This document shows positions 21,162 through 39,495 of a stretch of DNA of 40,586 nucleotides, one piece after another. This DNA is from Chromatiaceae bacterium (GTDB lineage: Bacteria; Pseudomonadota; Gammaproteobacteria; DTRM01): the NCBI GenBank assembly GCA_012965975.1, contig DTRM01000027.1:1-40586 (forward strand), given 5' to 3'. Position numbers and translations under genes: made by a program. Numbering within the stretch: the stretch's first letter is position 1; every line of letters starts with the position of its first letter. The notes under the pieces were generated by a model. That model was not told the DNA's origin. It saw nothing but the letters and a program-made list of their open reading frames with translations, and searched no databases.

Positions 21162-21187
21162 TATTTGTAAAGTTTGACGACAGATTA

Positions 21188-23557: not shown

Positions 23558-23573
23558 GTTGAAGTTAAGTAAC

Positions 23574-23668: not shown

Positions 23669-23731
23669 ATCTAGTTATCGTTGTATTGATTTTCAGAGGA
23701 GCGTAAGTTTCTCACATTTGGGTACAGCACA

Positions 23732-24580: not shown

Positions 24581-25239
24581 TTCGCTATCTATCTATTGCC
24601 GCGACGTCCATCCGTGCCTACAAGGGCACATTCGTACTGGTCAGTCTGGGCTTTTTTGTGCTCTATTACGCGGCACTTCTGTTGGCAACCATGCTGCGTT
24701 TTGGGGAGATCCCGAATTATGTTGTGTTCCACGACATCATTGGTATCTATGCGTTGGTTTTGCAAGGTACGCCGTCGTTGCAAGACGCTATACCGATTAT
24801 GCTGGGGGAGGCTTGGTTGGAAACGGGCTTCAAGGATCCTCTCTACTATGGGGTGGCGACTTGGAGCTATATGCTGATTCCACCAAAGATGTTGCTGGTT
24901 GCCATAATGGGCATGCTGTTAGGTTTGTTTGCAAGTTTGACGCTGTACAAGCGCAAGCAAGCCTGCTTGTTGGATAACGACCGGCGACTATTTGCGATTG
25001 CAGGAATTGGTACCACCTTTATCAGTTTGACTAGCGCGACCCTCACCTGGGTGGTTTGTTGTGCAACGCCTTCTTGGGTGGTCGCCCTGGCGATGCTGGG
25101 TATGAGTGCGTCGCTGGCGTTAGCCCTGGAGCCGTTGGGTCAGGCGCTTACCCTTGCTGGATTTGGCCTGATGGCTTGGATCATCTGCGTGCAGTTAAAA
25201 CGCTTGGTCGTAACCAACGACCTATCATTGGCGACTTAA
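24577..25239 (+). CDS. integral membrane protein of unknown function, embedded in the ABC operon (vicinal Cys-Cys in a TM helix)
   Basis: 220 aa with about 5 predicted hydrophobic segments. Its ATG overlaps the permease stop (ATGA). The motif TWVVCCATPSW has its cysteines encoded at 25057-25062. I recognise no family. Confidence 0.65.
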   Translation: MIRYLSIAATSIRAYKGTFVLVSLGFFVLYYAALLLATMLRFGEIPNYVVFHDIIGIYALVLQGTPSLQDAIPIMLGEAWLETGFKDPLYYGVATWSYMLIPPKMLLVAIMGMLLGLFASLTLYKRKQACLLDNDRRLFAIAGIGTTFISLTSATLTWVVCCATPSWVVALAMLGMSASLALALEPLGQALTLAGFGLMAWIICVQLKRLVVTNDLSLAT

Positions 25240-25282
25240 GTGCAAGCTCTCCGACTCCGCAATTATTCCCATAGGAAATAGC

Positions 25283-26167
25283 ATGACTGTGACCAGTAAC
25301 TCAGGCGGTATCGCCGCGCAAGACGACGGCGAAGTTGAAATACCGCCTATGGGGAAAACCCATACCACGCAGAGAAAGCCGACCGATGGACACGTAGAAA
25401 TTTCAGGTGTTACCGTGGATTTTGGTCAGGGTGTCGTCGCGGTTAAGGATGCAACCTTGGATATCCAACCCGGTGAATTCGTGTGTCTGCTGGGTCCCTC
25501 CGGTTGCGGAAAATCCACCCTGATGAATACCGTGGCGGCATTTGTAAAGCCGACCACCGGCAGTGTCAAGGTCGATGGAAAAGAGGTTGAAAAACCGGGC
25601 CAGGATCGTGGCATGGTGTTTCAGCAACACTCGCTATTTCCGTGGAAGACGGTCTGTGACAATGTCGCCTTTGGGCCGCTCATGGCCGGTAAGACTAAAT
25701 CACAGGCGCGCAGTATTGCGAGCACCTTTCTTGAGATGGTCGGCCTAAGTGCTTACGAAAATCGTTTTCCCAGTGTGTTGTCTGGCGGGATGAAACAACG
25801 GGTGGGTATTGCCAGAGCATTGGCCAATTATCCGAGTGTGTTATTGATGGATGAGCCTTTTGGTGCGCTGGATGCGCAGACTCGGGCGATGATGCAGGAA
25901 AACTTGCTGCAGATCTGGAGTGAATTTGGCATCACCGTCATCTTCGTCACCCATGATATCGATGAGGCCGTGTTCCTGGCCGATCGTGTTGTCGTGATGA
26001 GTGCCAGCCCCGGTCGTCTGATCGCCGACATCAAAGTGGAGCTGCCACGGCCACGTATTGCGGATATGGTCACCAGCGCCGAATACATCAAGACCAAAAA
26101 ACAATGCATGGATCTGATCCGCCAAGAATCTTTGCGCGCCTTTGAGCAGCAAAGTAATAAAGGCTGA
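25283..26167 (+). CDS. ABC transporter ATP-binding protein (NitT/TauT family, SsuB/TauB-like)
   Basis: Walker A GPSGCGKST, signature LSGGMKQRVGIARAL, Walker B LLMDEPFGALD, and H-loop VTHD. Confidence 0.92.
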   Translation: MTVTSNSGGIAAQDDGEVEIPPMGKTHTTQRKPTDGHVEISGVTVDFGQGVVAVKDATLDIQPGEFVCLLGPSGCGKSTLMNTVAAFVKPTTGSVKVDGKEVEKPGQDRGMVFQQHSLFPWKTVCDNVAFGPLMAGKTKSQARSIASTFLEMVGLSAYENRFPSVLSGGMKQRVGIARALANYPSVLLMDEPFGALDAQTRAMMQENLLQIWSEFGITVIFVTHDIDEAVFLADRVVVMSASPGRLIADIKVELPRPRIADMVTSAEYIKTKKQCMDLIRQESLRAFEQQSNKG

Positions 26168-26201
26168 TTGGGCTAACGAATAGGCATACCCGGCTAGATC
26201 A

Positions 26202-26864
26202 ATGATGAAGCTTGGTACCACTCTCGGACTCGCCGCAATCGTGATCGTTGGGGCCATTGTTGCCAATTTTACGCTTAGGCACGATTCAACTCTTCCCGAG
26301 CAGCTATACGACGTTGCCGTTTTCCCCCCGCAGTCGTTAGAGGCCGTTGATCTTATCGATCAGAATAACGAGGTCGTTGGGATAGAACGCTTCAAGAACA
26401 ACTGGACCTTCCTGTTTGTTGGATTTACTCATTGCGCTCATATTTGTGTGCCGAGTCTTTCGCAGATGGTGTTATTAAAAAAGGCGATCCTCAACCAGCC
26501 AGAGTTTGGGCCTCGGTATCAGGAAAAAGGCTTGGCCTTTGTGTTTGTCAGTGTCGACCCAGCACGGGATACGCCCGAGCATCTGGCGCGCTACATGGGG
26601 AGTTTCGATCCGGGTTTTATCGGCATGACGGGTGAAGAGTCGGCGGTCGAAGACTTTGAGAAACGGCTTAAGGCATTTCACCGCGTGCGCGAAGATAAAA
26701 CCAAACCACAGGGTTACGATATTGATCACAGCGGGGAGATCTTCCTGATTGATCCGGCGGGCAGGCTGGCCGCCAAGTTCCATCCGCCTCTGGATATCAA
26801 CAAGGTGGTGAATCAATTCCAGCTGTTTGTTGGCCACTTCACTGCACCGGTGCCACCAGGTTGA
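26202..26864 (+). CDS. SCO1/SenC-family thioredoxin-fold copper chaperone / thiol-disulfide protein
   Basis: It has an N-terminal membrane anchor, a CxxxC motif (FTHCAHICVPS), and the conserved distal His (DHSGEIFLIDPAGRL). Confidence 0.85.
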   Translation: MMKLGTTLGLAAIVIVGAIVANFTLRHDSTLPEQLYDVAVFPPQSLEAVDLIDQNNEVVGIERFKNNWTFLFVGFTHCAHICVPSLSQMVLLKKAILNQPEFGPRYQEKGLAFVFVSVDPARDTPEHLARYMGSFDPGFIGMTGEESAVEDFEKRLKAFHRVREDKTKPQGYDIDHSGEIFLIDPAGRLAAKFHPPLDINKVVNQFQLFVGHFTAPVPPG

Positions 26865-27526
26865 TCAAAGCAGTCGTCTTGTTGTGGGTTAGAGGCTGGC
26901 TGCTATGCTTGGTCGCTGGCTATGCCAGCCCCGCAGCGGCCGATTATCTGAATGAAGCAGATCAGGCGCCCCATGAGAAATGTGGCTACTGCCACGAACT
27001 CGATGGCAATCCGCGCATGACCCGATATCCACGTCTTGCAGGACAGCAGCGTGACTATATGGTTAAGCAACTTAAGGACTTTCGGTCGGGTCGTCGAACG
27101 GGAGAAATGCAAGGAACAGCGGAATTATTGTCGGACCGTGACATCGACATCGTGTCGGAGTATTTTAGTCAGCAAGCGGTGAAGCTGCCGCAATTGGATA
27201 GCCAGCCGGGCGCCGATCAGCGCTTGGCGAAATCGCTTTATCAGTACGGTGATTCGACAAGGGGATTGCTTGCCTGCAGTGCCTGTCATGGGGCCGTAGG
27301 CTTGGGTGGGGCCGCGATACCACGTTTGGCTGGCCAGCATGAGGCCTACCTATTACAACAGCTGGGCGAATTTAAGGCGGGGCAGCGCAGCAACGATGTG
27401 GAGGCTCAGATGGGCGATATTAGCCGCCTGCTAAGCGATACAGAAATCGCCGTGCTGTCAGCCTACCTGTCTCGCCTTAAGCCCAATAAAAACAATAGTT
27501 TGAAGGTTCTGGATGAGCGTAATTAG
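26861..27526 (+). CDS. dihaem cytochrome c4-type protein
   Basis: It has a signal peptide and two CxxCH motifs (CGYCH, CSACH), each followed by a candidate Met ligand. TTG 26861 overlaps the SCO1 stop. Confidence 0.85.
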   Translation: MIKAVVLLWVRGWLLCLVAGYASPAAADYLNEADQAPHEKCGYCHELDGNPRMTRYPRLAGQQRDYMVKQLKDFRSGRRTGEMQGTAELLSDRDIDIVSEYFSQQAVKLPQLDSQPGADQRLAKSLYQYGDSTRGLLACSACHGAVGLGGAAIPRLAGQHEAYLLQQLGEFKAGQRSNDVEAQMGDISRLLSDTEIAVLSAYLSRLKPNKNNSLKVLDERN

Positions 27527-27529
27527 TCC

Positions 27530-27587
27530 TTGACATCAAACGGTTTTAGGCTAAAATTAAACTTATTATATCATGTTATAACAAGTT
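27530..27587 (+). promoter_or_regulatory. candidate sigma70 promoter with an overlapping 28-bp palindromic operator
   Basis: TTGACA (27530-35), 16-nt spacer, TAAAAT (27552-57). An imperfect palindrome AACTTaTTATAtCATGtTATAAcAAGTT spans 27560-27587 (24 of 28 symmetric) and contains the perfect GntR-type GT-N4-AC core GTTATAAC. It lies directly upstream of the GntR gene. Confidence 0.45.
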
Positions 27588-27605
27588 GGTAGAATAGCGA
27601 TCTAA

Positions 27606-28373
27606 ATGACAACATCGAAGCACCCAATGAAGACAGTCCGTAATGCCTCTGCTGAGCCCATGTATGCGCAGATTAAAGAAGTGCTTAAACAGCGCATTTT
27701 GGATGGCGACTACGAAGTGAACGAACGCTTGCCCTCGGAAAGCGAGATGATGAAGGTGTTCGGTGTGAGTCGTATTACCGTTCGCCAAGCGGTGCGTGAC
27801 CTGCATACGGAGGGGCTGGTATTTAGCGCGCAGGGCAAAGGGACTTTCGTGTCCAGGCCAAAGGCGGTGCAGGACATTCAGCACTTGCAGGGGTTTGGCG
27901 AGGCGATGGCACCGCAAGGTTACGATACCTCGACTCGAGTGGTCGGGATCCAGGAAGTACGCGCCCCACAAGAGGTGGCAGAGGCCTTGAAGATTACGCA
28001 AAACGCCACGGTGGTTGAGTTGACGCGTATTCGGTATTTGAACCGGGAACCGATTTCTGTTGATAACAGTTTTTTCCCGATGAACATTGGTCAGTCGCTA
28101 CAGACTCGTGATTTGACCCAGGATATCTTTCCGATGTTGGAAACGGAATTTGGAGTTGGACTCGGGCATGCAGATTTAAAGATCGAAGCTATCGTCGCCA
28201 CAGCAGAGACGGCGAAACACCTGAACGTTGATAAGGATTCTGCTGTGCTTCGAATTCAACGACTGGTTTTTTCACAAGCAGGCGACCCGATTGATTTTGA
28301 GTATCTGTCCTATCGCGGCGATGCCTTCCAATATCAATTGCGGGTAGGGCGTCAGGAGCCACAGGCAGAATAA
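27606..28373 (+). CDS. GntR-family transcriptional regulator, HutC subfamily (wHTH plus UTRA effector domain)
   Basis: LPSESEMMKVFGVSRITVRQAVRDLHTEGLV is a GntR wHTH. The C-terminal ~150 aa are UTRA-like. Confidence 0.9.
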   Translation: MTTSKHPMKTVRNASAEPMYAQIKEVLKQRILDGDYEVNERLPSESEMMKVFGVSRITVRQAVRDLHTEGLVFSAQGKGTFVSRPKAVQDIQHLQGFGEAMAPQGYDTSTRVVGIQEVRAPQEVAEALKITQNATVVELTRIRYLNREPISVDNSFFPMNIGQSLQTRDLTQDIFPMLETEFGVGLGHADLKIEAIVATAETAKHLNVDKDSAVLRIQRLVFSQAGDPIDFEYLSYRGDAFQYQLRVGRQEPQAE

Positions 28374-28406
28374 TTTATTTAGGACAACTGAGTTAGGAAT
28401 ATCACT

Positions 28407-30167
28407 ATGAACGATAAAACAGATAGCAGTCATGAAGTATTAGAATTTGACGTGCTGGTTATTGGCGGCGGTACTGCGGGCCCAATGGCGGGTGTTCGCG
28501 CTAAAGAGATGAACCCAAAGCTGAGAGTGGCGGTTTTAGAGAAAGCCAACGTGAAACGTAGCGGCTGCATCAGTATGGGCATGGATGGCTTGAACAACGC
28601 CGTTATTCCGGGGCACGCGACGCCCGAACAGTATGTCAAAGAAATCACCGTTGCCAACGATGGAATTGTTAATCAAAAGACCATCATGGCCTATGCGACG
28701 CGTAGCTACGACATGATTAACACCTTGGATAAATGGGGTGTCAAGTTCGAGAAGGATGAGACCGGCGATTACAACGTCAAAAAAGTCCACCACATGGGGG
28801 CCTATGTGTTGCCAATGCCAGAAGGGCATCACATGAAAAAGATCCTTTACCGGCAGCTGCGCAAGAAACGCGTTTCGGTGATCAATCGTTTCATGGCAAC
28901 CCGTTTGTTTAAAGGTAAGGATGGTGCGATCGCCGGTGCGCATGTGGTCAACCCACGCACCGCCGAGACGGCAGTGATTAAGGCTAAAACCGTTATTCTG
29001 TGTACCGGTGCAGCGGGTCGTTTGGGGATGCCAACGTCCGGTTACCTGTTTGGTACCTACGAAAATCCAACCAATGCCGGTGATGGCTATAGCATGGCCT
29101 ATCACGTTGGCGCGGAACTCAGCGGCCTCGAGTGTTACCAGATCAACCCATTGATCAAGGATTACAACGGCCCTGCGTGTGCCTATGTGACGGGTCCTAT
29201 GGGCGGTTACACGGCCAACTCTAAGGGTGATCGCTTCATCGAGTGCGATTACTGGAGCGGCCAAATGATGCTGGAATTCTATAAGGAACTGGAAGGCGGT
29301 AACGGTCCGGTGTTCTTGAAGATCGACCACCTTGCAGAAGAAACCATTTCAGAGATCGAAGTCATTTTGCATTCCAATGAACGCCCCAGTCGGGGCCGCT
29401 TCCACGAAAATCGTGGTACCAATTATCGGGAGCGCATGGTTGAAATGCATATCTCAGAGATTGGGTTTTGCAGTGGCCACAGCGCCTCTGGTATTTGGAC
29501 GGATGAAAATGCGCGCACCACTATTCCGGGACTCTATGCGGCGGGTGATTGTGGCTCCGTGCCACACAACTACATGCTGGGTGCTTTTGTTTATGGTGCG
29601 ATCGCGGCCGAGGATGCGGTCAAATACTGTGCCGAACACGAGCAGTGTGAGATAGACAGTGCCGAGATTGCGGCTGAAAAGGCCCGTGTATTGGCGCCGT
29701 TACAGGTGAAAGATGGCATTCCGGCCGAGCAGATGGAATACAAAATTCGGCGCTTGGTCAACGACTACTTGCAACCACCCAAGGTGACTAAAAAGATGGA
29801 GATCGGCATGGAGCGCTTCGCTGAAATTCGCGCCGACTTGCCTATGTTGCAAGCGAATGATCCGCATGAATTGATGCGTGCGATGGAAGTGCACTTCATT
29901 CTTGATTGCGCCGAGATGGCGGCGACCGCGTCGATGTATCGTACCGAGAGTCGTTGGGGCTTGTATCACTACTACGTCGATCACCCCGATACCGATGATG
30001 AAAAATGGATGTGCCATGTGCAGACCAAGAAAGGTGCAGATGGTCTCCCGGAATGTAGCACGCGCCCTATTGAACCTTACATCGTAGAGTTGGATGAAGA
30101 GGAAATGAGCGCCTATAAGAAATTACGTGTCAGCGATGACGACACCACAGAAACAGCAGGAGTTTGA
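28407..30167 (+). CDS. FAD-dependent oxidoreductase resembling adenylylsulfate reductase alpha subunit (AprA-like; SdhA/FrdA superfamily)
   Basis: 586 aa with an FAD fold (DVLVIGGGTAGPMAG, LEKANVKRSG), AprA-like segments (ERPSRGRFHENRG, ISEIGFCSGHSASGIW), and a C-terminal FAD motif (IPGLYAAGDCG). Confidence 0.8.
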   Translation: MNDKTDSSHEVLEFDVLVIGGGTAGPMAGVRAKEMNPKLRVAVLEKANVKRSGCISMGMDGLNNAVIPGHATPEQYVKEITVANDGIVNQKTIMAYATRSYDMINTLDKWGVKFEKDETGDYNVKKVHHMGAYVLPMPEGHHMKKILYRQLRKKRVSVINRFMATRLFKGKDGAIAGAHVVNPRTAETAVIKAKTVILCTGAAGRLGMPTSGYLFGTYENPTNAGDGYSMAYHVGAELSGLECYQINPLIKDYNGPACAYVTGPMGGYTANSKGDRFIECDYWSGQMMLEFYKELEGGNGPVFLKIDHLAEETISEIEVILHSNERPSRGRFHENRGTNYRERMVEMHISEIGFCSGHSASGIWTDENARTTIPGLYAAGDCGSVPHNYMLGAFVYGAIAAEDAVKYCAEHEQCEIDSAEIAAEKARVLAPLQVKDGIPAEQMEYKIRRLVNDYLQPPKVTKKMEIGMERFAEIRADLPMLQANDPHELMRAMEVHFILDCAEMAATASMYRTESRWGLYHYYVDHPDTDDEKWMCHVQTKKGADGLPECSTRPIEPYIVELDEEEMSAYKKLRVSDDDTTETAGV

Positions 30168-30168
30168 C

Positions 30169-30402
30169 ATGCCATTAATTCAAAGTAGCAGCCGCGCGCC
30201 GGTTACCATTAATTCCGAGGCTTGCATCGCCGACAAGGGTTGTACCGTTTGTGTTGATGTCTGCCCGTTAGACCTGTTGGTCATTGATATGGCCAATGGT
30301 ACTGCGGTCATGAAGTACGACGAATGCTGGTACTGTCTACCGTGCGAATTGGACTGTCCCACCGATGCAGTCAGCGTCGAAATTCCCTACCTATTGAAAT
30401 AA
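30169..30402 (+). CDS. small 2x[4Fe-4S] ferredoxin resembling the N-terminal ferredoxin domain of AprB (lacks the AprB C-terminal tail)
   Basis: 77 aa with CIADKGCTVCVDVCPLDLLVID...ECWYCLPCELDCPTDAV (compare AprB ...ICPNDLM..D...CWECYSCVK.CPQGAI). An AGGAG SD precedes ATG 30169, which lies 1 nt after the flavoprotein stop. Confidence 0.8.
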   Translation: MPLIQSSSRAPVTINSEACIADKGCTVCVDVCPLDLLVIDMANGTAVMKYDECWYCLPCELDCPTDAVSVEIPYLLK

Positions 30403-30415
30403 GCAGGAGTATTCC

Positions 30416-31378
30416 ATGGCGATTAGTTTTGATGAAGGCTTAGACCTGGATGAGGTTTTGGAAAACCTCAGTGATGCCGATGCTGGCGTGCGCAGAGTCG
30501 CAGTGATGGAGCTTCGCGAGTTGGATGAGGACGATGCCATTCCACTGGCAGTCAAGGCCTTGTCCGACAGCGATGCCAATGTGCGCAAAGAGGCGGCGCA
30601 GGTGATGGATGAGTTTGAAGGTGCCGAGACCATTCAGGCGTTGGTGGGTGCATTGGCCGATAGCGATGAGGGTGTGCGTACCACGGCCGCTGCAGTGCTG
30701 GCCGAGACCCAGGATCCGACCGCGGGGCCAATTTTGATGCAGGGAGTGGGCAGCACCAATATCTTCGTCAAGGCTGCTAGCCTGCATGGCTTGCGGGGGT
30801 TGCGACTGGCTGAATCCGAACCCCTTGCGTTGGAGAATTTAGAGCACGCCGAACCGACGGTGCGGCGCGAGTCCGTTGGGGTACTGGCCTATCTTAAGAG
30901 TGTGTCGATACTGCCGGTCTTGATGAACACGGCGGCCAACGACAGCGATGAAAACGTCCGACGCGCGGCGATCGGCTCACTGGTTTATTGTCCGGATGAT
31001 CAAGTCACCGAAACGCTGACTAAGGGTTTGAGTGATGACAATTGGCTGGTGCGTGAAGAGTCCGCTTTTGTGCTGGGTAAGATTGCACCGACCTCGGCGG
31101 TCAACGCACTCATCGATGCCATGAGTGATGAGTATTGGCAGGTTCGGGTGAAGACGGCAGCCGCGTTGGGCAAGCTCAAAGATCCGGCTGCGGTCGATGT
31201 GCTGGGTCAGGCATTGTCATACAACATCAGCAACCTACGCAAAGAATCTGCGGCGGCGCTTGGCGAGATCAAGTCACCCAACGCATTACCGTTCCTGCAG
31301 GTTGCTACTGAAGATGTGGATCCCGATGTGCGTAAGATCGCGCAATGGGCCATTGACCAGATTAATAAAGGAGACTAG
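30416..31378 (+). CDS. HEAT-repeat (PBS-lyase HEAT-like) protein
   Basis: 320 aa made of about 9-10 tandem ~30-aa repeats of the type D.D..VR..AA.ALG......A...L...L.D. Confidence 0.85.
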   Translation: MAISFDEGLDLDEVLENLSDADAGVRRVAVMELRELDEDDAIPLAVKALSDSDANVRKEAAQVMDEFEGAETIQALVGALADSDEGVRTTAAAVLAETQDPTAGPILMQGVGSTNIFVKAASLHGLRGLRLAESEPLALENLEHAEPTVRRESVGVLAYLKSVSILPVLMNTAANDSDENVRRAAIGSLVYCPDDQVTETLTKGLSDDNWLVREESAFVLGKIAPTSAVNALIDAMSDEYWQVRVKTAAALGKLKDPAAVDVLGQALSYNISNLRKESAAALGEIKSPNALPFLQVATEDVDPDVRKIAQWAIDQINKGD

Positions 31379-31380
31379 CT

Positions 31381-31707
31381 GTGGCGTTTATCGTTGGTGA
31401 TGGCTGCATACGTTGTAAATACACCGATTGTGTTGATGTCTGTCCGGTGGAAGATTGTTTCCGGGTAGGTCCAAACTTTCTGGTGATCGATCCGGTCACC
31501 TGTATCGATTGCACGCTCTGTGTGCCGGAGTGTCCTGCCGAGGCTATCTTTGCAGAGAAGGATGTGCCGGAGGATCAGCAGGAATTCATTGCATTGAATG
31601 CGGAGCTGGCCAAGGTATGGCCCGGTATCAATGACCCGATTGACCCCTTGGAAGATGCCGATGACTGGGTCGACGAAAAAGCTAAGCTCCAGTATCTGGA
31701 ACGTTAG
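31381..31707 (+). CDS. fdxA: 7Fe ferredoxin, Azotobacter FdI type ([3Fe-4S][4Fe-4S])
   Basis: 108 aa with a GTG start. AFIVGDGCIRCKYTDCVDVCPVEDCF..GPNFLVIDP..CIDCTLCVPECPAEAIFAE.DVPEDQQEFIALNAELAKVWP is near-collinear with Azotobacter/Pseudomonas FdxA. Confidence 0.9.
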   Translation: MAFIVGDGCIRCKYTDCVDVCPVEDCFRVGPNFLVIDPVTCIDCTLCVPECPAEAIFAEKDVPEDQQEFIALNAELAKVWPGINDPIDPLEDADDWVDEKAKLQYLER

Positions 31708-31734
31708 GCTTCTATCGGGTTTTGAGATTGCGTT

Positions 31735-32310
31735 ATGGGTGAGTACCTGACACTGCTGTTTGCCACTATTTTTGTTAACAATATGGTGTTGTCCCGGTTT
31801 CTGGGGCTGTGCCCCTTTATGGGTGTGTCGAAGAAACTGGAGCCCGCCATCGGCATGGGTTTAGCCACTGCGTTCGTGTTGACACTGGCCTCCGTGTGTA
31901 GCTATCTGGCCAATGAATATCTGTTGCAGCCGTTCGGACTCGAGTATCTGAAGACCGTCACCTTTATTTTGGTCATCGCGGTCATTGTTCAGGGCACTGA
32001 GATGGTGTTGCGCAAGACCAGCCCGCTATTGCACAGCGTATTGGGTATCTATCTACCCTTGATCACCACCAACTGTGCGGTATTGGGCATCGCACTGCTG
32101 AATGTCCAGGAAGACAACAATTTTGTTCGTTCGGCGTTGTATGGTTTTGGTGGTGCAACAGGTTTTACATTGGTGATGGTGTTGTTTGCATCCATTCGTG
32201 AGCGTCTGGAACTGGCAGATGTCCCTGAATCTTTTCGCGGTGCGCCGATTGCCTTGATGACGGCCGGATTGATGTCGGTAGCCTTCATGGGCTTTGCCGG
32301 CATGGCCTAG
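31735..32310 (+). CDS. rnfA: Rnf/Rsx electron transport complex subunit A
   Basis: 191 aa, collinear with E. coli RsxA ([35 protein letters not shown]). Confidence 0.93.
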
Positions 32311-32321
32311 GGAGTAGCCGC

Positions 32322-32876
32322 GTGTCAGTGTTATTGCTTACCGCCCTTGCTTTGGCTTTTGGAGTTTTCCTTGGCTTTGTCGCGATCAAATTCCGCGTGG
32401 AAGGTGATCCCATTGTCGAAAAAATCGATACCCTGTTACCCCAAACCCAATGTGGTCAGTGTGGTTATCCGGGCTGTCGTCCCTATGCCGAGGCCATTGC
32501 CAGCGAAGAGGCCGAAATCAATCAATGCCCACCCGGTGGTGAGGCCGGTGTTCAGGCGCTGGCCGAACTGCTAGGTAAAGAGCCGATGCCGCTGAACCCG
32601 GACAACGGGGTTGCCGAAGAGGGTCCGGCAATGCTGGCGCTGATCGATGAAGAGACCTGCATCGGTTGCACCAAGTGTGTGCAGATTTGTCCAGTCGACG
32701 CGATTTCTGGCGCTCCAGGTTTTATGCATACGGTACTGGATGTTTATTGCACCGGTTGCGAGCTGTGTCTGCCACCCCTATGTCCTGTTGACGACTGCAT
32801 CATTATGGTTCCGGTGGAGGCCAACATCAGGACTTGGAAATGGTCAAACCCTGAGGCCGTGGGTGCGGTTCTGTGA
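32322..32876 (+). CDS. rnfB: Rnf/Rsx complex subunit B (Fe-S)
   Basis: It has an N-terminal anchor, the [16 protein letters not shown] cluster, and two ferredoxin motifs ([16 protein letters not shown]; [18 protein letters not shown]). The second motif has one extra residue before the CP compared with E. coli RsxB. GTG start. Confidence 0.9.
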
Positions 32877-34429
32877 ACAAGCTGTGGCGATTCAATGGTG
32901 GGGTTAAACTCAGTGGTTTCAAGTCGTTGTCTAATGCCGCTGGGGTAAAGCGTCCGCCGCTGCCTAAACGGCTATATTTACCGCTGCAACAGCATATCGG
33001 CGCACCGGCAGAAGCCCTGGTGGAGGTAGGTGATAAAGTTTACAAAGGGCAGTTGATCGCGGCGTCGAGTTCGTTTATCAGTGCGCCCGTACATGCGTCC
33101 TCTTCAGGCACGGTTGTCGAACTCAAAAAACATATCATCGCGCACCCCTCCGGTATTGCGGAAGACTGCATTGTCATTGAGACCGATGGCAAAGATGAAT
33201 GGCACTCCTCTATCAGTGCATTATCGAATCCCGATGCACTGGATCTTGATGAACTCAGAAGCCGTATCAGTGAGGCCGGAGTCGTTGGTCTGGGCGGCGC
33301 GGTGTTTCCCTCTGGCGCCAAGCTAAAACCTACTCGGAGCATCGATACACTGGTTATCAACGGTGCGGAGTGTGAGCCCTATATAACGTGCGATGATCGT
33401 CTTATGCGCACGCGTCCTCGAGAGATTATTCGAGGGCTGTTGCTGCTCAGGCGTCTGGTCAACCCCACCGAATGCATCATCGCGGTGGAAGACAATAAAC
33501 CCGAAGCGGTCCAGCATTTACGACGGGCCATTGATGAATTGAAGTCAGAAGGCATTGGCAGTGTTAGCACGGTGCGGGTGGTGGCTGTGCCTACCCTGTT
33601 TCCTGCGGGCGGTGAGAAACAACTCATCAAGGTGCTGACCGGAAAGGCAGTCCCTCAGCGAGGGTTACCCTATGAGGTAGGGGTGGTGTGTCTCAACGTG
33701 GGCACCACCGCTGCAGTCTATGATGCCATCTATGAGGGCAAACCGCTGATATCGCGGTTAGTCACCATCACCGGCCCCAATGTAAAGCATGCCGCCAACT
33801 ACGAAGTGCCCATCGGGACGCCGGTGCAGCACATGCTGGATATTGCCGGCGCTGATGATACGGGGGGTGGCGAACAGAATCGACTGATCATGGGTGGCCC
33901 GATGATGGGGCACGTTCTGCCGAATGCGCAAGTGCCAGTGGTCAAGGCGACCAATTGTATCCTGGTGGAACCTAAGGCCGATGTCGTTCCGACCACTGCC
34001 ATGCCGTGTATCCGCTGTGGCAGCTGCGCCGACGTCTGCCCCATGCATCTGTTACCGCAACAACTCTATTGGCACGCACGCGGCAAGGCATTTGATAAGC
34101 TGGATCATCACAATTTGGCCGATTGTATCGAGTGTGGTTGTTGTGCGGTCGCGTGCCCGTCGAAAATTCCATTGGTGCACTATTTCCGTTTTGCTAAAAC
34201 TGAAAAGAAAGAGTTTGATGCCAAGGCGATTTTTGCTGACCAGTCCCGCGTGCGCATGCAAATTCGCGAGGCTCGTATCGCACAGCGCGAGCGCGAACTG
34301 GAAGAACGCAAGGCGAAACGTAAGGCAGATCGTTTGAAAAAGAAAAAGGCGAAAGCCGCCGCTGCTGCCGCCAGCGCAAACGCTTCGGTCGATGATCAAG
34401 ATCAGGCCTCTAACGGAGTATCGGTCTGA
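32873..34429 (+). CDS. rnfC: Rnf/Rsx complex subunit C (NADH/FMN-binding, 2x[4Fe-4S])
   Basis: 518 aa with [36 protein letters not shown] and [12 protein letters not shown], plus a Lys/Ala-rich C-terminal tail. GTG 32873 overlaps the rnfB stop. Confidence 0.9.
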
Positions 34430-35487
34430 TGTCTGATAACGCCTCAACGTCTCAAGCGACCTCACCCTTTGTACCGTCGAGTACCTCAGTGGGCGCAGTC
34501 ATGCGCAAGGTTATCTATGCGCTGATCCCTGGGGTGGTTCTCTATATGATTTTGTTTGGTTGGGGCATCGTCATTAACATTATATTGGCCAGTGTTAGCG
34601 CGTTGCTGTTTGAAGCCATCATGTTGATGGTGCGTGGCCGCCCGTTGCGCATGTTTCTGTTCGACGGGAGTGCTGTGGTGACCGCTATACTCCTGACGCT
34701 GGCACTGCCGCCGATGCTGTCGTGGTGGATTCCGGTACTCGGCAGCTTCTTTGCCATTGTGGTAGCGAAACATCTTTACGGTGGTTTGGGTTATAACCCC
34801 TTTAATCCGGCCATGATGGCCTATGCGATTTTGTTGGTGTCCTTTCCATTACAACTTAGCCTATGGGCCGGGCCATTGGACCTCATTGCACAGCCGCTGA
34901 CCTTTGTCGAAACGTTGAATTACTCGTTGTTTCATCAGTTACCGGGTGCAATGGCTTTTGATAGTCTTACCGCTGCTACGCCACTGGATTATCTACGCAC
35001 TCAGGTAGGTCTCGGTCAAACAGTAGAAGCGATCACGCGTGCGCCGATATTTGGTTTGCTGGGTGGGCAGGGTATGGAGTGGGTCAATAGCGCATTTCTG
35101 CTGGGTGGTCTCTGGTTGTTGTATATGCGCATCATAAGTTGGCATATACCGGTGGCGGTGCTGGCATCCATCGGTTCGATCTCTGGTCTCGCCTATTTTC
35201 TCGACCCTGCGGTCTTCGCGAATCCATCGGTTCATCTGTGGGGCGGAGCGAGTATCCTTTGCGCATTTTTCATCGCCACCGATCCGATTACTGCATCGAC
35301 GACCCCTTTAGGGCGGATTATTTACGGCCTAGGTATCGGTGGTCTGACCTTCGCTATTCGGACATGGGGCGGTTATCCCGATGGGGTTGCGTTCGCGGTG
35401 TTGCTAATGGGCCTAGTCGTTCCCTTGCTTGATCATTACACGGTGCCCAAGGTATTTGGTGCAAGGACTGACCGTGGCAATCAGTAG
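34429..35487 (+). CDS. rnfD: Rnf/Rsx complex subunit D
   Basis: 352 aa, polytopic, NqrB/RnfD-like (GGLGYNPFNPAM, TAATPLD flavinylation-region equivalent, ATDP.T). Its ATG overlaps the rnfC stop by 1 nt. Confidence 0.9.
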   Translation: MSDNASTSQATSPFVPSSTSVGAVMRKVIYALIPGVVLYMILFGWGIVINIILASVSALLFEAIMLMVRGRPLRMFLFDGSAVVTAILLTLALPPMLSWWIPVLGSFFAIVVAKHLYGGLGYNPFNPAMMAYAILLVSFPLQLSLWAGPLDLIAQPLTFVETLNYSLFHQLPGAMAFDSLTAATPLDYLRTQVGLGQTVEAITRAPIFGLLGGQGMEWVNSAFLLGGLWLLYMRIISWHIPVAVLASIGSISGLAYFLDPAVFANPSVHLWGGASILCAFFIATDPITASTTPLGRIIYGLGIGGLTFAIRTWGGYPDGVAFAVLLMGLVVPLLDHYTVPKVFGARTDRGNQ

Positions 35488-36148
35488 CGAGCACAAAGGT
35501 ATGGTTGTTGCCGGCTGGCTACTGGCCGTCTCGGCGTTATTGGGAACGGGTCTATTGGCGGTCGTCAATCAGCACTCCGAACCTTATATCGCAGAAAATG
35601 AACGCATAATGCTACTTCGCAGCTTGAACGAAGTGGTGCCCATAGAAAGCTATGACAATGAGATCTTGGAGGACCAAATGATGGTCCTGGCCCCCGAGTA
35701 TCTGGGTAGCAAGAAAGCCTCAATCGTCTACCGCGCAAGAAAGGCGGGCAAGCCGGTCGCAGTGGTACTGACCGTGGTCGCACCGAATGGTTACAGTGGC
35801 CCCATCGTGTTATTGGTCGGCATAGATTATAGCGGCGATATCACCGGAGTGCGGGTGGTTAAACATCGCGAAACGCCGGGTCTTGGCGACGCCATCGAGA
35901 TTGAACGCAGTGACTGGATAGAAAGGTTCACTGGAAAATCGCGCCGTAACCCGGGCAGAGCAGGTTGGAAGGTGAAGCGAGACGGCGGTGAATTCGATCA
36001 ACTGACCGGTGCAACGATTACGCCGAGGGCTGTGGTCGCTGCGGTTTCTGGTGCGCTCGAGTATTTTGAACACAATAGAGACAATCTGTTTATCTCGAAC
36101 GCTGAAATTCAGGCGCGAGACGAAGAAGCAAAGGGCCTACAGCAATAG
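35474..36148 (+). CDS. rnfG: Rnf/Rsx complex subunit G (FMN-binding)
   Basis: It has an N-terminal TM segment and the FMN_bind motif HRETPGLGD ... [14 protein letters not shown]. The start is uncertain: GTG 35474 is preferred, ATG 35501 is possible, and ORF start 35429 overlaps rnfD by 59 nt. Confidence 0.85.
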
Positions 36149-36165
36149 GTCATGGAGAATTTAGC

Positions 36166-36861
36166 ATGAGTGACAATGTATACGGCGACATCGTAACAAA
36201 TGGTCTGTGGACCAATAACCAAGCCTTGGTGGCGTTACTCGGTCTTTGTCCGTTGCTGGCAGTATCGTCAACCGCCATCAACGGTCTGGGTTTGGGCGTT
36301 GCGACCATGGCGACCCTGACACTGACCAACCTGATTGTGGCGTCCATCCGGCGATGGATTTTGCAGGAGATTCGCATCCCTATGTTTGTGATCATCATTG
36401 CCTGCGTGGTGACCGCTATCGAATTATTAATGAACGCCCATCTGCACGACCTCTATCGTGTATTGGGAATATTCGTGCCGTTGATCGTCACTAACTGCGC
36501 GATCATTGGCCGTGCCGAAGCCTTTGCATCGAAAAATAATGTCGTCCGCTCAACGCTGGATGGATTGGTTATGGGGCTGGGTTTTGCACTGGTGCTGGTA
36601 TTCCTGGGGATCATCCGCGAGATACTCGGCTATGGCACTATTTTTCGCGGTGCAGAGCTGATGCTCGGTCCTTGGGCATCGGATCTGACGATAACCCTCG
36701 CCAGTAACTACGACGGTTTGTTGCTTGCCATATTACCGCCCGGTGCGTTTATGGCGCTGGCCGTGATTATCGCACTGAAGAACAAGATTGATCGTGTGCA
36801 GCAGAGACGTAGTGCAAACGCAGTTTCTGTAGCGGTACCCCTGCAGTCATCGCGGGCCTAG
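36166..36861 (+). CDS. rnfE: Rnf/Rsx complex subunit E
   Basis: 231 aa, collinear with E. coli RsxE ([39 protein letters not shown]). Confidence 0.93.
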
Positions 36862-36863
36862 TC

Positions 36864-37310
36864 ATGATCGAAGAACAGGCATTGGTCATCGCGGTGGAGA
36901 AGGGTGCGGTTGTTGTCCAGACCCAGCGGGCATCAACCTGTGGCAGTTGTGCGACAAAACAGGGTTGTGGCACATCGGCGCTGGCTAAGGGAATGGGCAA
37001 GGGATACACGGAGTTACGGGTTGTGTCAGATTTGGATGTTAATGTCGGTGATACAGTGATTCTGGCGATCGATGAATCGTCGTTGCTTAAAGGTGCTGTG
37101 TTTGTCTACTTGTTGCCGTTGATCGCCATGATCCTGGGGGGTATCACGGGCGACTATTGTGCAAATCTGTTCGCCTTGAATAGCGAATGGCTCAGCATTG
37201 TTTTCGGTGTTGCAGGGCTCGTCGGCAGCTTGTTGTTGATACGTCTAAATCCGTATGCGCATCGATTTCAACAACAAATTCAACCAAGGATGGTGTGCAG
37301 GAAGTATTAA
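36864..37310 (+). CDS. rseC: RseC/MucC-family protein (SoxR-reducing system component)
   Basis: 148 aa with the N-terminal domain carrying CGSC....GCG (QRASTCGSCATKQGCGTS) followed by two TM helices. It starts 2 nt after rnfE. Confidence 0.8.
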   Translation: MIEEQALVIAVEKGAVVVQTQRASTCGSCATKQGCGTSALAKGMGKGYTELRVVSDLDVNVGDTVILAIDESSLLKGAVFVYLLPLIAMILGGITGDYCANLFALNSEWLSIVFGVAGLVGSLLLIRLNPYAHRFQQQIQPRMVCRKY

Positions 37311-37674
37311 TCCAGTCGTAGTAATCGGCTTGGGGACGGTACCGCGTACTCTCGAAAAGACCGCTATCATGAATTTCAGGGATTCTATGGGTAACGACAT
37401 CCCAAATGATCTCGGTATCGAGTGCAAAATAATGATGCGCATTGATATCACGGAATTTTGCGGCCTCAGACCATTCAATCTCTGGCATACCAGAAAGCAA
37501 ATCGGGTGGTAGCTTGTTGGCGGCTTCACCAATGACTTGAAGGTTGAACAGAACCGCGTCCAGAAGAACTTCATTGTCGCAGAATGCTTAAAACGATAAC
37601 TGACTAACAGTGCGTTGGATCCTCTCTGCCGCTTTAACAATATCGTCCAGATACAGCAGCGGGTCACGTGACAC
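37192..37674 (-). pseudogene. HepT (DUF86) toxin-like gene interrupted by an in-frame TAA
   Basis: Reading from GTG 37674 gives VSRDPLLYLDDIVKAAERIQRTVSQLSF*AFCDNEVLLDAVLFNLQVIGEAANKLPPDLLSGMPEIEWSEAAKFRDINAHHYF..., with the stop at 37588-37590. The DUF86 Rx4HxY motif is present (RDINAHHY). The C-terminus runs abnormally long into the 3' end of rseC. Confidence 0.6.
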
Positions 37675-38053
37675 GAATCAGATCCTTCTCCACAGCTGGG
37701 CGAGCACGAGGTTTCAGCCCGGATTCGGTTACCAGATCAACCACATTTCCTAAAAGCTACTCGAGAAAACGATTCGGTTTTATGTCAGCATCGAAAGTAG
37801 CTGGGCCATCGAACTCGACAAGGACATCGACGTCGCTATCGTTGCATGCATCGTCACGCGCGGTCGAACCGAACAGCCCTAGATGTCTGACGGAATAGTT
37901 ATTGATGATTTCATCCTGATGTGATGTCAGGATTTCCAGATCCTGTTCTCGAAGCGCAGTGGGGAATGGGGGAGGTCGTTGTATGTTTCGGGCGGCTGGG
38001 CAGAAATCGCATTGATCGGGGCTGGTTGGTCTGATCGTATTTACAAAAGCCAT
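37664..38053 (-). pseudogene. MNT (MntA-type nucleotidyltransferase) antitoxin-like gene interrupted by an in-frame TAG
   Basis: The sequence reads ...HLGLFGSTARDDACNDSDVDVLVEFDGPATFDADIKPNRFLE*LLGNVVDLVTESGLKPRARPAVEKDLIRVT*. The TAG at 37757-37759 sits where family members continue (LE.LLG..VDLVT). The terminal TGA (37664-66) overlaps the HepT GTG start, giving typical toxin-antitoxin coupling. Confidence 0.6.
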
Positions 38054-39495
38054 TGAACGATGGCGTAACGGCTGCGGCCATTGCTCGGTGTGATCGAGTG
38101 ATAGGCGGGATCGCGCACGAAGTCGGTCACCACTAATCGATTGTATTCCGGTGTGATCTGATCAAGCAAAAATAGTTCCGCCGGCTTAACGCCCCCCTGT
38201 TTGACCAGATGGGTCGTCAATGTGCGGTGTTCGTTGAGAAAGTCCAGACGTTCATCTTTGTAGTCTTTCCAGCGAAACTCGACCGCATCAGCGGAAAGAG
38301 GTTCTGTGCGCGCCACCTCTGCCCAGAGTTGCAGGATTGCCCCATCGCTTTCCTTCCAGTCTTTGTTTAAGTAGGTTAACGCAGCAAGGACTACAGATTT
38401 ACGATTGGTTCGATCGGTGTGAATCCAGAACCCCTTGCTGTCGGGATCGTGCGCACGCAGTTTGACGCTGGTTTCACCATTTCCGACGACCAATTTAGTA
38501 TCCGTATACTCAGCTAGCAAGCGGTGCCATGAAGGATGGTAAAACAGTTCGCCCCCCAGAGATCCGCGCCGAGCCGGGGCCCATTTTGAGTCATAAGGGA
38601 GCCCCTTGTCATCCGGGGAAAATTCTAAATGACAATGTTGCTCAATATACTCATCAAGAATCGCTTCGTTAAAGAAGTTATCCAGACATGCGTATTTGGC
38701 AAAGGGTTTTGCCTGACTTGATGCTTTTATCTCCTGAATAGTATCGGGTTCTAGGTAATAGGGGGTCACCCATTTCTTTAAGATGGGGTCTTGGTCGTAT
38801 CGCTCCGCCGCTTTTACCGGTGATATCGCCGCACTGATAGAGTGGGAATGGTTCAGCTGTGGATCAATCGAATCGATGGCAGTTTGGATGGCGTTATCTG
38901 ATGGCCATGGTCGGTCTTCAAAGATGGAAGGTCGTTGACCAAATACAAAGGCAATAATGGACTCCACCTGTGTCTTAGGGTCATCCGTCAGTTCATCAAA
39001 ATCGATCTTCAGAAGATCCGGAGAATGGGTGTCAATGAACTCATCGATTTGACGCAAAAGCCATTCAAAATGCGTTCGGGTTTTGTTCTCATCGCTGCCG
39101 GGCCATTTGCGTTTAAAGCTCCGCAGGCATGCCGATGGAGCTCGCACGCACTGGATGACCTTGTAATGGTAACCTTCTAGTGCGGGCGCAAAATCGAGTA
39201 TCGCTTCAAGGGTTTCAGGCTCCTTTATCCCCCATAGCGGGTAGTGGATAAACCGATTGATTATGAACCGTTCGATGTGAGTCAGGACAGAACGATCATT
39301 GCGATACTGATACAGCAGTCGGCGAAATTGTGCGTCCTCAAAGTGTCCTTTCGGATTCGCCTCAGTCGCGGGCACAAGTTTCTCGCCCATCATGACACCT
39401 AGGTGGTGAAGGATTCCGGCGACGGCGCTGGAACCACTACCGTAGGTTCCTAGCACAATTATTCCCAGAGAGTTTGAAGCATCAACGTGTGACAT
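38041..39495 (-). CDS. two-domain protein: N-terminal sulfotransferase-like domain fused to a C-terminal 2OG-Fe(II) oxygenase domain
   Basis: 484 aa. The N-terminus has a PAPS-loop-like GTYGSGSSAVAGILHHLGV...NPKGHFED. The C-terminus has WIHTDRTNRKSV (HxD), LTYLNKDWKESDGAILQLW, and NRLVV...AYHSITPSNGRSRYAIVQW (distal His and Arg), typical of the 2OG-FeII_Oxy_3-like fold. Confidence 0.6.
   Translation of the reverse strand: MSHVDASNSLGIIVLGTYGSGSSAVAGILHHLGVMMGEKLVPATEANPKGHFEDAQFRRLLYQYRNDRSVLTHIERFIINRFIHYPLWGIKEPETLEAILDFAPALEGYHYKVIQCVRAPSACLRSFKRKWPGSDENKTRTHFEWLLRQIDEFIDTHSPDLLKIDFDELTDDPKTQVESIIAFVFGQRPSIFEDRPWPSDNAIQTAIDSIDPQLNHSHSISAAISPVKAAERYDQDPILKKWVTPYYLEPDTIQEIKASSQAKPFAKYACLDNFFNEAILDEYIEQHCHLEFSPDDKGLPYDSKWAPARRGSLGGELFYHPSWHRLLAEYTDTKLVVGNGETSVKLRAHDPDSKGFWIHTDRTNRKSVVLAALTYLNKDWKESDGAILQLWAEVARTEPLSADAVEFRWKDYKDERLDFLNEHRTLTTHLVKQGGVKPAELFLLDQITPEYNRLVVTDFVRDPAYHSITPSNGRSRYAIVQWLL

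Follow-up and report, generated by a model that had tools for sequence, protein, structure and literature searches.

The DNA analysed here is a stretch of 40,586 nt from a Chromatiaceae bacterium (GenBank assembly GCA_012965975.1, contig DTRM01000027.1; hereafter the window), in which genes for a GntR-type regulator, a flavin adenine dinucleotide (FAD) flavoprotein, a small iron-sulfur (Fe-S) protein, a HEAT-repeat protein and the ferredoxin FdxA run directly into rnfABCDGE, the genes of the Rnf complex. On balance, we favour the view that the window holds one copy of a widespread and self-contained module, made up of the GntR regulator, an importer, a three-protein enzyme and FdxA, with Rnf serving as its ferredoxin reductase, and that the enzyme works reductively on a substrate of the X-SO3 type. 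The gene content of the array, its conservation in other genomes, a conserved operator and the interchange of ferredoxin reductases are the observations on which this view is built.

The array at 27606-37310 consists of 12 genes with 11 junctions, not of thirteen genes as an initial annotation of the window had counted. The order given there, GntR, flavoprotein, Fe-S protein, HEAT protein, FdxA, RnfABCDGE and RseC, all on the + strand, was borne out by the open reading frames (ORFs) and by Pfam and NCBIfam scans (Table 1). Recomputed from the coordinates, the junctions were those listed before: gaps of 33, 1, 13, 2, 27 and 11 nt are followed by overlaps of 4, 1 and 14 nt, and these by gaps of 17 and 2 nt. 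The 1-nt junction and the 14-nt overlap hinge on the chosen starts, ATG 30169 and GTG 35474, and the former agrees with the 77-aa gene calls in relatives. The annotation had seen no terminator at any junction, and our scan agrees with it, since terminator-like matches on the + strand were all weak and all intragenic. A sequence scan of the 27-nt gap between fdxA and rnfA gave no promoter or terminator match.

We scanned a genome collection with an alignment of the flavoprotein and found a relative encoded in at least 573 species genomes, the best 80 of which provided the loci examined in detail (designated here by L numbers). In these 80 loci the flavoprotein is 69-81% identical to that of the window. 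They span the Gamma-, Beta- and Alphaproteobacteria and include Thiobacillus, Halothiobacillus, Acidithiobacillus, Nitrosospira, Methylomonas, Massilia and Herbaspirillum, as well as Variovorax, Pseudomonas, Halomonas, Methylopila and Ancylobacter. The flavoprotein gene is also carried by 60 plasmid or chromid records. Mapping of the window proteins onto the loci, together with clustering of all locus ORFs, defined a recurring module of GntR, flavoprotein, Fe-S subunit, HEAT protein, and the substrate-binding protein (SBP), permease and ATPase of an ATP-binding cassette (ABC) importer; FdxA is present in about half of the module loci. The GntR gene is conserved directly 5' of the flavoprotein gene, the small Fe-S gene always adjoins the flavoprotein gene, the HEAT gene was found in 82 loci, and an SBP homologue was found in 77, with the permease and ATPase also conserved beside it. 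This recurrence across loci indicates that the importer is a core member of the module and that FdxA belongs to the enzyme module and not to rnf. A Pfam scan of 145 co-directional neighbours returned scattered families only (amidase 5, alpha/beta hydrolase 5, TauD 4, FNR 4), and the module looks self-contained because its flanks hold no further conserved enzyme. A DUF971/GBBH-like_N protein of ~100 aa is encoded in 54 of the loci examined (for example, L084:13360-13683 and L002:~11548-11900); in Thioalkalivibrio sulfidiphilus its gene lies between fdxA and rnfA.

FdxA of the window exceeds the cut-off of NF045490 (145.3 vs 135) and matches PF11953 (DUF3470) at 1e-15, and FdxA is present in 43 module loci, two of which are the window and L093. 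Among the 38 FdxA loci with sufficient flanks, 37 have a ferredoxin:NAD(P)H oxidoreductase beside the module. The partner is rnfABCDGE in 11 loci (the window, L001-L004, L010, L083 of Sedimenticola thiotaurini, L084 of T. sulfidiphilus, L085 of Sulfuriflexus, L087 of Kaarinaea lacus, and L093), a ~1180-aa fusion of a GltD-like and a PyrK-like part in 18 loci (Thiobacillus, Halothiobacillus, Acidithiobacillus, Acidihalobacter, Thermithiobacillus and Burkholderiales), and an Fpr-type ferredoxin-NADP reductase (FNR) in eight (Halomonas, Methylopila, Azoarcus, Telluria and Pelomonas). Five more loci (L011, L012, L049, L064 and L072) end within ~1-2 kb, too early for a partner to be decided, and one with full flanks, L059, has no partner. 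None of the loci without FdxA has Rnf, the GltD+PyrK fusion or FNR. In L044, L051, L055, L086 and L060, fdxA is followed immediately by the reductase gene, just as it is by rnfA in the window. The fusion matches the NCBIfam models PRK06567, PRK12778 and PRK06222. GltD-like and PyrK-like proteins are the two module types that compose the NfnAB/SudAB enzymes, and the fusion is in this sense putatively Nfn-like. In the fusions (L088:16609-20145, L086:13406-16852, L019:17223-20786 and 15 further loci), an FAD/NADPH 2x[4Fe-4S] module is combined with an FAD/NAD module and the Pfam domain RP005_N; in aerobic lithotrophs the protein goes together with FdxA and resembles an Nfn-type enzyme in fused form. 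A neighbour-joining tree of the flavoprotein places the Rnf-type loci in what is essentially one clade, which also encloses the Nfn-type L086, and the FNR type occurs on it at least three times. We see here a non-orthologous displacement at a fixed position, and it is our strongest evidence that FdxA has to exchange electrons with pyridine nucleotides and that Rnf fills this role in the clade of the window.

The Rnf complex itself, an ion-motive NADH:ferredoxin oxidoreductase, is canonical. The six subunits, in the order A-B-C-D-G-E, all score above the Rnf subfamily cut-offs, and five also pass the Rsx equivalogs (RsxA 311 vs 240, RsxB 253 vs 203, RsxC 663 vs 345, RsxG 221 vs 178, RsxE 310 vs 184); rnfD passes TIGR01946 (367 vs 207) and falls just short of the RsxD equivalog (390 vs 415). 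RnfG has the flavinylation motif TGAT at residue 178, the CxxCxxCxxxC motif occurs twice in RnfC (at 379 and 418), and RnfB has, by regular expression, an N-terminal CGQCGYPGC and one CxxCxxCxxxC motif. A simple pattern search of RnfD for (S/T)G(A/S)T gave no match. The adjacency of fdxA and rnfA recurs in 10 other loci, among them S. thiotaurini, T. sulfidiphilus, Sulfuriflexus, Kaarinaea and several metagenome-assembled genomes (MAGs), and the Rnf subunits of the linked loci have diverged to 43-85% identity. We also ran the comparison in reverse, by scanning metagenome contigs with the RnfA alignment, and obtained 80 loci in which RnfA is 59-73% identical to that of the window. FdxA was encoded in only one of these 80 rnf loci. 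Of the related rnfABCDGE operons, 63 had >1 kb of sequence upstream, and 62 of these were without FdxA and the enzyme, the exception being L093. Thus rnfABCDGE is normally on its own, and fdxA is not carried along with it.

These counts bear on several points of the initial annotation. It had allowed that fdxA-rnf-rseC might be conserved without the enzyme block, which would make their adjacency a coincidence; in the related loci, what usually stands alone is rnf without fdxA. The neighbourhood survey that it had proposed places fdxA-rnf beside the enzyme in 11 loci, yet these are restricted to one clade and most enzyme loci are without rnf. Its reading of Rnf and FdxA as a dedicated low-potential electron supply stands insofar as FdxA is tied to the enzyme and Rnf is a plausible reductase for it, but the word dedicated goes beyond the data. 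Overall, the idea of a ferredoxin supply survives, and the exclusivity and generality of the Rnf link do not. The linkage itself is real, being conserved in at least four named genera and in MAGs, yet it is restricted to one clade of gammaproteobacterial sulfur oxidisers.

Downstream of rnfE the Rnf-type loci differ. The RseC-family protein of the window belongs to PF04246 (110.6 bits) and misses the E. coli equivalog NF008115 (77.6 vs 184); no RseC homologue follows rnfE in the other Rnf-type loci. The position held by the RseC-family gene in the window is taken by a TauE-family gene in L002, L083 and L084, and TauE/SafE genes stand after rnfE or before rnfH at L083:18533-19267, L084:18915-19649, L002:~17094-17774, L085:65-640, L087:2416-3150 and L001:~2139-2645. 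In Sulfuriflexus, a gene for an ApbE flavin transferase lies beside TauE. In K. lacus (L087:1-2255 and 21647-21737) the flanks of the whole cluster hold nifQ, draG, an alanine dehydrogenase-like gene and draT, and the Rnf of Kaarinaea may also serve nitrogen fixation.

The presumed catalytic subunit, the flavoprotein, is a full-length member of NF006131 (PRK08275), with residues 8-578 aligned to model positions 5-575 at 1040.2 bits (cut-off 587). The family is annotated as 'fumarate reductase/succinate dehydrogenase flavoprotein subunit' and belongs to the superfamily of fumarate reductase and adenosine 5'-phosphosulfate (APS) reductase. Identity to homologues in the Alpha-, Beta- and Gammaproteobacteria is 69-92%. 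To our knowledge, no member of NF006131 has been characterised. The initial annotation had called the flavoprotein and the Fe-S protein AprAB-like, which overstates the similarity: the aprA models remain far below their cut-offs (TIGR02061, 169.8 vs 641.75; NF005331, 303 vs 557), as does the aprB model TIGR02060 on the small subunit (27.1 vs 135.65), and the catalytic Arg265 of AprA is Leu here. Among solved structures, the nearest is the alpha subunit of the reductase for 3'-phosphoadenosine 5'-phosphosulfate (PAPS) of Methanothermococcus thermolithotrophicus (MtPAPSR; 8a8o, 2e-77), followed by AprA of A. fulgidus. From the work on 1JNR and 2FJA, we take the active-site residues of A. fulgidus AprA to be Asn74, Tyr95, Trp234, Arg265 and His398. 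In a profile alignment to 2fja and 8a8o, Asn74 and His398 are conserved as N63 and H358, and Arg265, Trp234 and Tyr95 correspond to Leu249, Tyr218 and Glu79, replacements that are invariant in 10 family members. MtPAPSR has FEMRFIALRVKD and the PRK08275 flavoprotein family has IECYQINPLIKD, with both Arg gone. MtPAPSR retains the catalytic residues of APS reductase, and it releases sulfite by FAD-N5 chemistry with ferredoxin as the proposed donor (PMC10322725). Because the catalytic Arg is replaced by Leu, the flavoprotein is probably not an APS or PAPS reductase. Four cysteines of the flavoprotein family, Cys243, Cys258, Cys280 and Cys355, are invariant, as are His128/129. AlphaFold2, run on an alignment of 10 sequences, gave a poor model of the flavoprotein (mean predicted local distance difference test score 53, residues 201-364 <50), from which we draw no conclusion.

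The small subunit has eight Cys in two cluster motifs and is a bare 77-aa ferredoxin without the C-terminal tail of AprB. NF010374 models a flavoprotein fused to a HEAT protein; its C-terminal part (643-895) is matched by the HEAT protein of the window, and its N-terminal part by the flavoprotein at 827 bits. Since NF010374 models a natural fusion that is matched by both window proteins, the HEAT protein is likely a subunit of the enzyme. We rejected the idea that it is a metalloenzyme resembling deoxyhypusine hydroxylase; its conserved residues belong to the repeat scaffold only, with no Cys or His motif. Genes for sat, aprM and qmo/qmoABC are found neither in the 40.6-kb window nor among the recurrent neighbours in 88 loci. 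AsfA and AsfB are the reductase and the ferredoxin of aryl desulfonation (PMC4267179, PMC2864759). The asfAF1all forward primer matches exactly, and the AsfBtoA reverse primer with 2 mismatches, only at a paralogue, L069:16573-18506, and the PRK08275 family has LSG(I/L)EC where AsfA has LSGMEF. Our suspicion that the flavoprotein is AsfA was rejected on this ground and on a BLASTP identity of 23% between the paralogue and the window protein, which make AsfA a distant relative outside the PRK08275 family. Full-text searching of the literature found no published description of the flavoprotein family or of the gene arrangement, in line with the initial annotation, to which no pathway arranged in this way was known.

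The regulator belongs to the HutC subfamily of GntR proteins by its PF00392 (8e-21) and PF07702 (3e-36) domains, and none of the named equivalogs HutC, PhnF, PhnR and TreR reached its cut-off. Both the promoter and the palindromic operator seen earlier at the 5' end of the array were confirmed (Table 1), the operator starting 16 nt past the -10 box. A search of 27480-27640 for inverted repeats with exact 6-nt seeds found none, and the operator motif emerged from k-mer enrichment in the regions 5' of GntR across loci. Counted with at most one mismatch, TGTYATRACA lies within -200 to +30 of the start of GntR in 62 of 73 related loci (background 0.024 per 230 nt), and the operator is thus real and no chance match. 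In the same interval, the motif stands in 9 of 17 loci before the Nfn-like gene and, in 7 Rnf-type loci with a separate importer operon, before the SBP gene. The GntR regulon would thus take in the importer and, where it forms a separate unit, the reductase. Regulation by GntR, as proposed in the annotation, is the part for which regulator and operator are both conserved. In front of rnfA the motif is found only in L010, which fits read-through of rnf from the GntR promoter, and we infer that rnf and the enzyme genes are co-transcribed.

The gene set as first annotated was incomplete, in that a conserved importer of the SsuA/TauA type (22166-26167), directly upstream on the same strand, had been overlooked. 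This importer is the best clue to the substrate that the module offers. The nearest solved structures to its SBP are SsuA (3uif) and TauA (6ssy), and models of sulfonate, taurine and nitrate importers are the best matches of the SBP, permease and ATPase, though below the cut-offs for SsuABC/TauABC (SsuA_fam 120.9 vs 163.5, TauC 151 vs 342, TauB 260 vs 357). An Rfam scan of the 338-nt leader of the SBP gene found no riboswitch. The gene content around the module points in a similar direction. TauE/SafE-family exporters are encoded in 8 module loci, 6 of them of the Rnf type (S. thiotaurini, T. sulfidiphilus, Sulfuriflexus, Kaarinaea, L001 and L002), and of the 88 module loci, 8 encode TauD, 9 an LLM monooxygenase and 3 an AsfA-like paralogue (L069, L024 and L032). 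None of these four kinds of gene is present in the 80 stand-alone rnf loci, a control set that is not matched in taxonomy. Taken together, these neighbours suggest an organosulfur or sulfur-oxyanion substrate. In L069, from Andreprevotia, AsfA/AsfB-like genes lie immediately 3' of the module, with TauD and an NtaA/DmoA-type monooxygenase upstream, and a Paraburkholderia locus runs on into genes for an LLM oxidoreductase, 3-mercaptopropionate dioxygenase and rhodanese.

In 6 further Rnf-type loci the SBP gene has an RnfH-like neighbour; the true start of the RnfH-family gene of the window is probably later than 21384, because the domain spans residues 68-145, and the gene may instead be a housekeeping RatB/YfjF homologue, given that a RatA-like SRPBCC gene lies nearby in L083. 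Besides the window, the hydrophobic 220-aa protein, which contains the stretch VVCCATPSW, was found only in Rnf-type loci (L001, L003, L004, L010, L085, L087 and L093); the SCO1 gene occurs mainly in Rnf-type loci, and homologues of the cytochrome c occur in L001, L010, L085 and L093. This extra trio (window 24577-27526), which the importer operon has in the Rnf-type loci alone, stands beside a cytoplasmic flavoenzyme. A gap of 3 nt separates the stop codon of the cytochrome gene from the -35 box of the GntR promoter.

We propose the following mechanism. An anionic substrate, most likely an organosulfonate or other X-SO3 compound, would be imported by the ABC system, and the substrate or a derivative of it would lift repression by GntR. 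Electrons would pass from NADH through Rnf, driven by the ion-motive force, to FdxA, and then from FdxA through the small Fe-S subunit to the FAD, where the substrate would be reduced by two electrons, probably with release of a sulfur oxyanion such as sulfite. In other lineages the Nfn-like GltD+PyrK fusion or the Fpr-type FNR would take the role of Rnf. As a more specific form of this proposal, which we offer tentatively as a possibility, the flavoprotein, Fe-S subunit and HEAT protein would be a new class of ferredoxin-dependent reductase that cleaves imported X-SO3 compounds (sulfonate, thiosulfonate, sulfamate or sulfate ester) and releases sulfite, by a chemistry derived from but distinct from that of APS reductase, powered by Rnf, an Nfn-like bifurcating fusion or FNR according to lineage. 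Such a reductase would be widespread among aerobic Proteobacteria and also plasmid-borne.

A number of observations weigh against this mechanism. In about half of the loci both FdxA and a reductase gene are missing, so the enzyme does not strictly require a low-potential supply dedicated to it, and Rnf, Nfn-type enzymes and FNR are all reversible, so that electrons could flow either way. AprA-type chemistry is not to be assumed, since Arg265 and Trp234 are not conserved, and the 145 flanking genes in the Pfam scan include no further conserved catalytic partner. The 40-kb window has no DUF971 gene and no TauE gene, and neither the SBP leader of the window nor the sequence 5' of its ABC genes has a good operator match. 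The control for the counts of TauE, TauD, LLM monooxygenase and AsfA-like genes is taxonomically unmatched. Many hosts are obligate lithoautotrophs on reduced sulfur with no obvious need to scavenge sulfonates. Finally, the T. sulfidiphilus genome paper reports a single rnfABCDGE, and the Rnf encoded in the window may be the only, general-purpose Rnf of the cell.

The last point leads to a different reading of the locus, in which the general-purpose Rnf of the organism is a shared hub for nitrogenase, for ferredoxin-dependent carbon fixation or for SoxR-type sensing with RseC. The enzyme module with its FdxA would have integrated next to rnf, which would keep its own expression, and the enzyme would be just one among many clients. 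We consider this somewhat unlikely. Stand-alone operons are indeed the rule for rnfABCDGE, and their RnfA is up to 73% similar to that of the window, matching some of the linked ones; only one such operon is listed for T. sulfidiphilus, the Kaarinaea locus sits amid nifQ, draG and draT, and RseC after rnfE is confined to the window. However, the adjacency is kept within tens of nt in all 11 loci, across those four or more genera and the MAGs, 9 of 10 loci have no operator or promoter match before rnfA, the position after fdxA is taken elsewhere by other ferredoxin reductases, and TauE, RnfH and ApbE genes are interleaved with the module. The reversibility of the three partner enzymes, which is established, also allows the flow to be oxidative: the enzyme would oxidise an imported low-potential substrate and pass the electrons from the Fe-S subunit to FdxA and on to Rnf, the Nfn-like enzyme or FNR, yielding NAD(P)H and, with Rnf, an ion gradient. 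This would help lithoautotrophs that otherwise need reverse electron flow, and many of the hosts are lithoautotrophs (Thiobacillus, Halothiobacillus, Acidithiobacillus, Nitrosospira and methanotrophs); AprAB itself is known to work oxidatively in sulfur oxidisers. We nevertheless judge the oxidative direction improbable, since no candidate low-potential substrate is indicated, the importer family together with TauD, LLM monooxygenases and TauE indicates oxidised sulfur compounds, soil heterotrophs have the enzyme without FdxA or a reductase gene, and an Fpr-type FNR paired with an FdI-type ferredoxin in aerobes usually reduces the ferredoxin.

Two further readings would assign the enzyme to a known type. 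That the flavoprotein and Fe-S protein are only a shuttle of the AsfAB type, feeding a separate oxygenase and having no substrate of their own, seems very unlikely to us. AsfA is of the same superfamily, AsfA-like paralogues lie beside the module in three loci, and TauD and LLM oxygenases are frequent neighbours in heterotrophs, but no oxygenase is conserved with the module and none is found in the lithotroph loci. The low identity to the AsfA-like paralogue and the failure of the asfA primers to match the flavoprotein family also argue against a shuttle, as does an identity of ~70% across proteobacterial classes with many invariant polar residues, which suggests a catalytic site. A true APS or PAPS reductase that uses ferredoxin, for sulfite oxidation or sulfate assimilation, is scarcely credible, even though MtPAPSR alpha and A. 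fulgidus AprA are the best solved matches and the equivalents of Asn74 and His398 are conserved. The three replacements at Arg265, Trp234 and Tyr95 and the scores of the aprA and aprB models stand against it, sat, aprM and qmo are missing from the window and from the surroundings of related loci, and an importer and a substrate-type GntR regulator are ill-suited to a nucleotide substrate made in the cell. A reductive enzyme supplied through FdxA remains the reading that we favour.

Several known systems come close to the module. Like the dissimilatory APS reductase AprAB and the APS-reductase-like MtPAPSR, the enzyme pairs an FAD flavoprotein that has the fumarate-reductase fold with a small 2x[4Fe-4S] subunit, and it shares with MtPAPSR a ferredoxin as the proposed donor; unlike them, it departs at three active-site positions, lacks the AprB tail, and comes with a HEAT protein, an importer and a GntR regulator instead of sat, aprM or qmo. 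The asfRABC cluster of Pseudomonas putida S-313 likewise has a flavoprotein of the same superfamily, a small ferredoxin, an SsuA-like binding protein and an organosulfur context, but it is LysR-regulated and has no HEAT protein, FdxA or reductase partner, and the role of AsfAB is itself unproven. With the nif-linked Rnf1 of Azotobacter and with RsxABCDGE-RseC of E. coli, the window shares the six-subunit ABCDGE complex, an FdI-type 7Fe ferredoxin and an RseC-family gene 3' of rnfE. The client differs, being an uncharacterised flavo/Fe-S enzyme rather than nitrogenase or SoxR, and in the window the client and ferredoxin genes lie directly upstream, in one array behind a GntR-controlled promoter. 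Enzymes of the NfnAB/SudAB type and the Fpr-FdI couple hold the post-fdxA position of Rnf in other lineages, implying ferredoxin-pyridine nucleotide exchange; they are absent from the window, and the GltD+PyrK fusion (PRK06567-like) is itself uncharacterised.

The remaining part of the window is ordinary chromosome, with riboflavin genes, nusB, thiL, parE/parC, relA, gltX, glnS and three tRNAs, the latter being the sole matches in an Rfam scan. Its GC content is 0.47-0.56 without a marked compositional break. Genes for tRNA-Ala(GGC) and tRNA-Glu(UUC), at 21086-21263, lie directly 5' of the rnfH-like gene that opens the 16-kb co-directional block. Convergent to rseC, the - strand of 37245-39495 encodes a 140-aa ORF without a family match, a small nucleotidyltransferase-domain protein and a 484-aa protein with weak matches to 2-oxoglutarate-Fe(II) oxygenases; the 140-aa ORF shares 66 nt with the 3' end of rseC and is perhaps not a genuine gene. 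Between ispA and parE, a DUF3501 protein (9263-9865) is encoded 3' of a 143-aa ORF (8759-9190).

Table 1. Genes and sites of the importer block and the GntR-to-RseC array, with their positions in the window
Feature	Position	Strand	Basis or remark
RnfH-family (Ub-RnfH) gene	21384-21827	+	Pfam PF03658 7e-23, NF002490
Periplasmic SBP, NMT1/SsuA/TauA/NrtA family	22166-23557	+	TIGR01728 SsuA_fam 120.9 bits (below cut-off), Pfam NMT1_2
ABC permease, TauC/SsuC/NtrB type	23732-24580	+	Family scans
Hydrophobic 220-aa protein	24577-25239	+	No Pfam or NCBIfam match; between permease and ATPase genes
ABC ATPase, TauB/SaoA/NtrCD type	25283-26167	+	Family scans
SCO1/SenC-family protein, clade-specific addition	26202-26864	+	Pfam PF02630 1.5e-32
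Dihaem c-type cytochrome, clade-specific addition	26861-27526	+	Pfam Cytochrom_C, Cytochrome_CBB3
Sigma-70-like promoter TTGACA-16-TAAAAT	27530-27557	+	11/12 positions; best site in 21000-38200
Palindromic operator TGTTATAACA (consensus TGTYATRACA), presumed GntR site	27574-27583	.	Sole exact match in window
GntR/UTRA regulator, HutC subfamily	27606-28373	+	Pfam GntR 8e-21, UTRA 3e-36
FAD flavoprotein, 586 aa, PRK08275, presumed catalytic subunit	28407-30167	+	NF006131 1040 bits
2x[4Fe-4S] ferredoxin-like small subunit, 77 aa	30169-30402	+	Eight Cys, Pfam Fer4_7
HEAT-repeat protein, probably scaffold or third subunit	30416-31378	+	Pfam HEAT_2 6e-72
FdxA, 7Fe FdI-type ferredoxin, presumed carrier to enzyme	31381-31707	+	NF045490 145.3 bits, DUF3470
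rnfA	31735-32310	+	NCBIfam
rnfB	32322-32876	+	NCBIfam
rnfC	32873-34429	+	NCBIfam
rnfD	34429-35487	+	NCBIfam
rnfG	35474-36148	+	NCBIfam
rnfE	36166-36861	+	NCBIfam
RseC/MucC-family protein	36864-37310	+	Pfam PF04246 7e-32

In aerobic bacteria, Rnf and 7Fe ferredoxins have few known clients, mainly nitrogenase and SoxR, and the locus described here gives a concrete new candidate client. As far as gene comparison goes, it appears to encode a flavo/Fe-S enzyme of the AprAB/AsfAB superfamily with a ferredoxin of its own and an interchangeable reductase, for which we found no published description. The enzyme family is present in hundreds of species and on plasmids, is strongly conserved across proteobacterial classes, and has no characterised member that we could find. 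The interchange of Rnf, the Nfn-like fusion and FNR behind the same ferredoxin amounts to a natural experiment, indicating that the enzyme depends on a ferredoxin that exchanges electrons with NAD(P)H. The question of the substrate is directly testable, because the module occurs in cultured hosts (S. thiotaurini, T. sulfidiphilus, Pseudomonas, Herbaspirillum, Halomonas and Acinetobacter) and brings its own binding protein and regulator, which can serve as ligand reporters. If the substrate is an organosulfur compound, the module would represent an unrecognised reductive route in the sulfur cycle, and, if our proposal is correct, a rare instance in aerobes of ion-motive reverse electron flow through Rnf that powers a catabolic or assimilatory enzyme.

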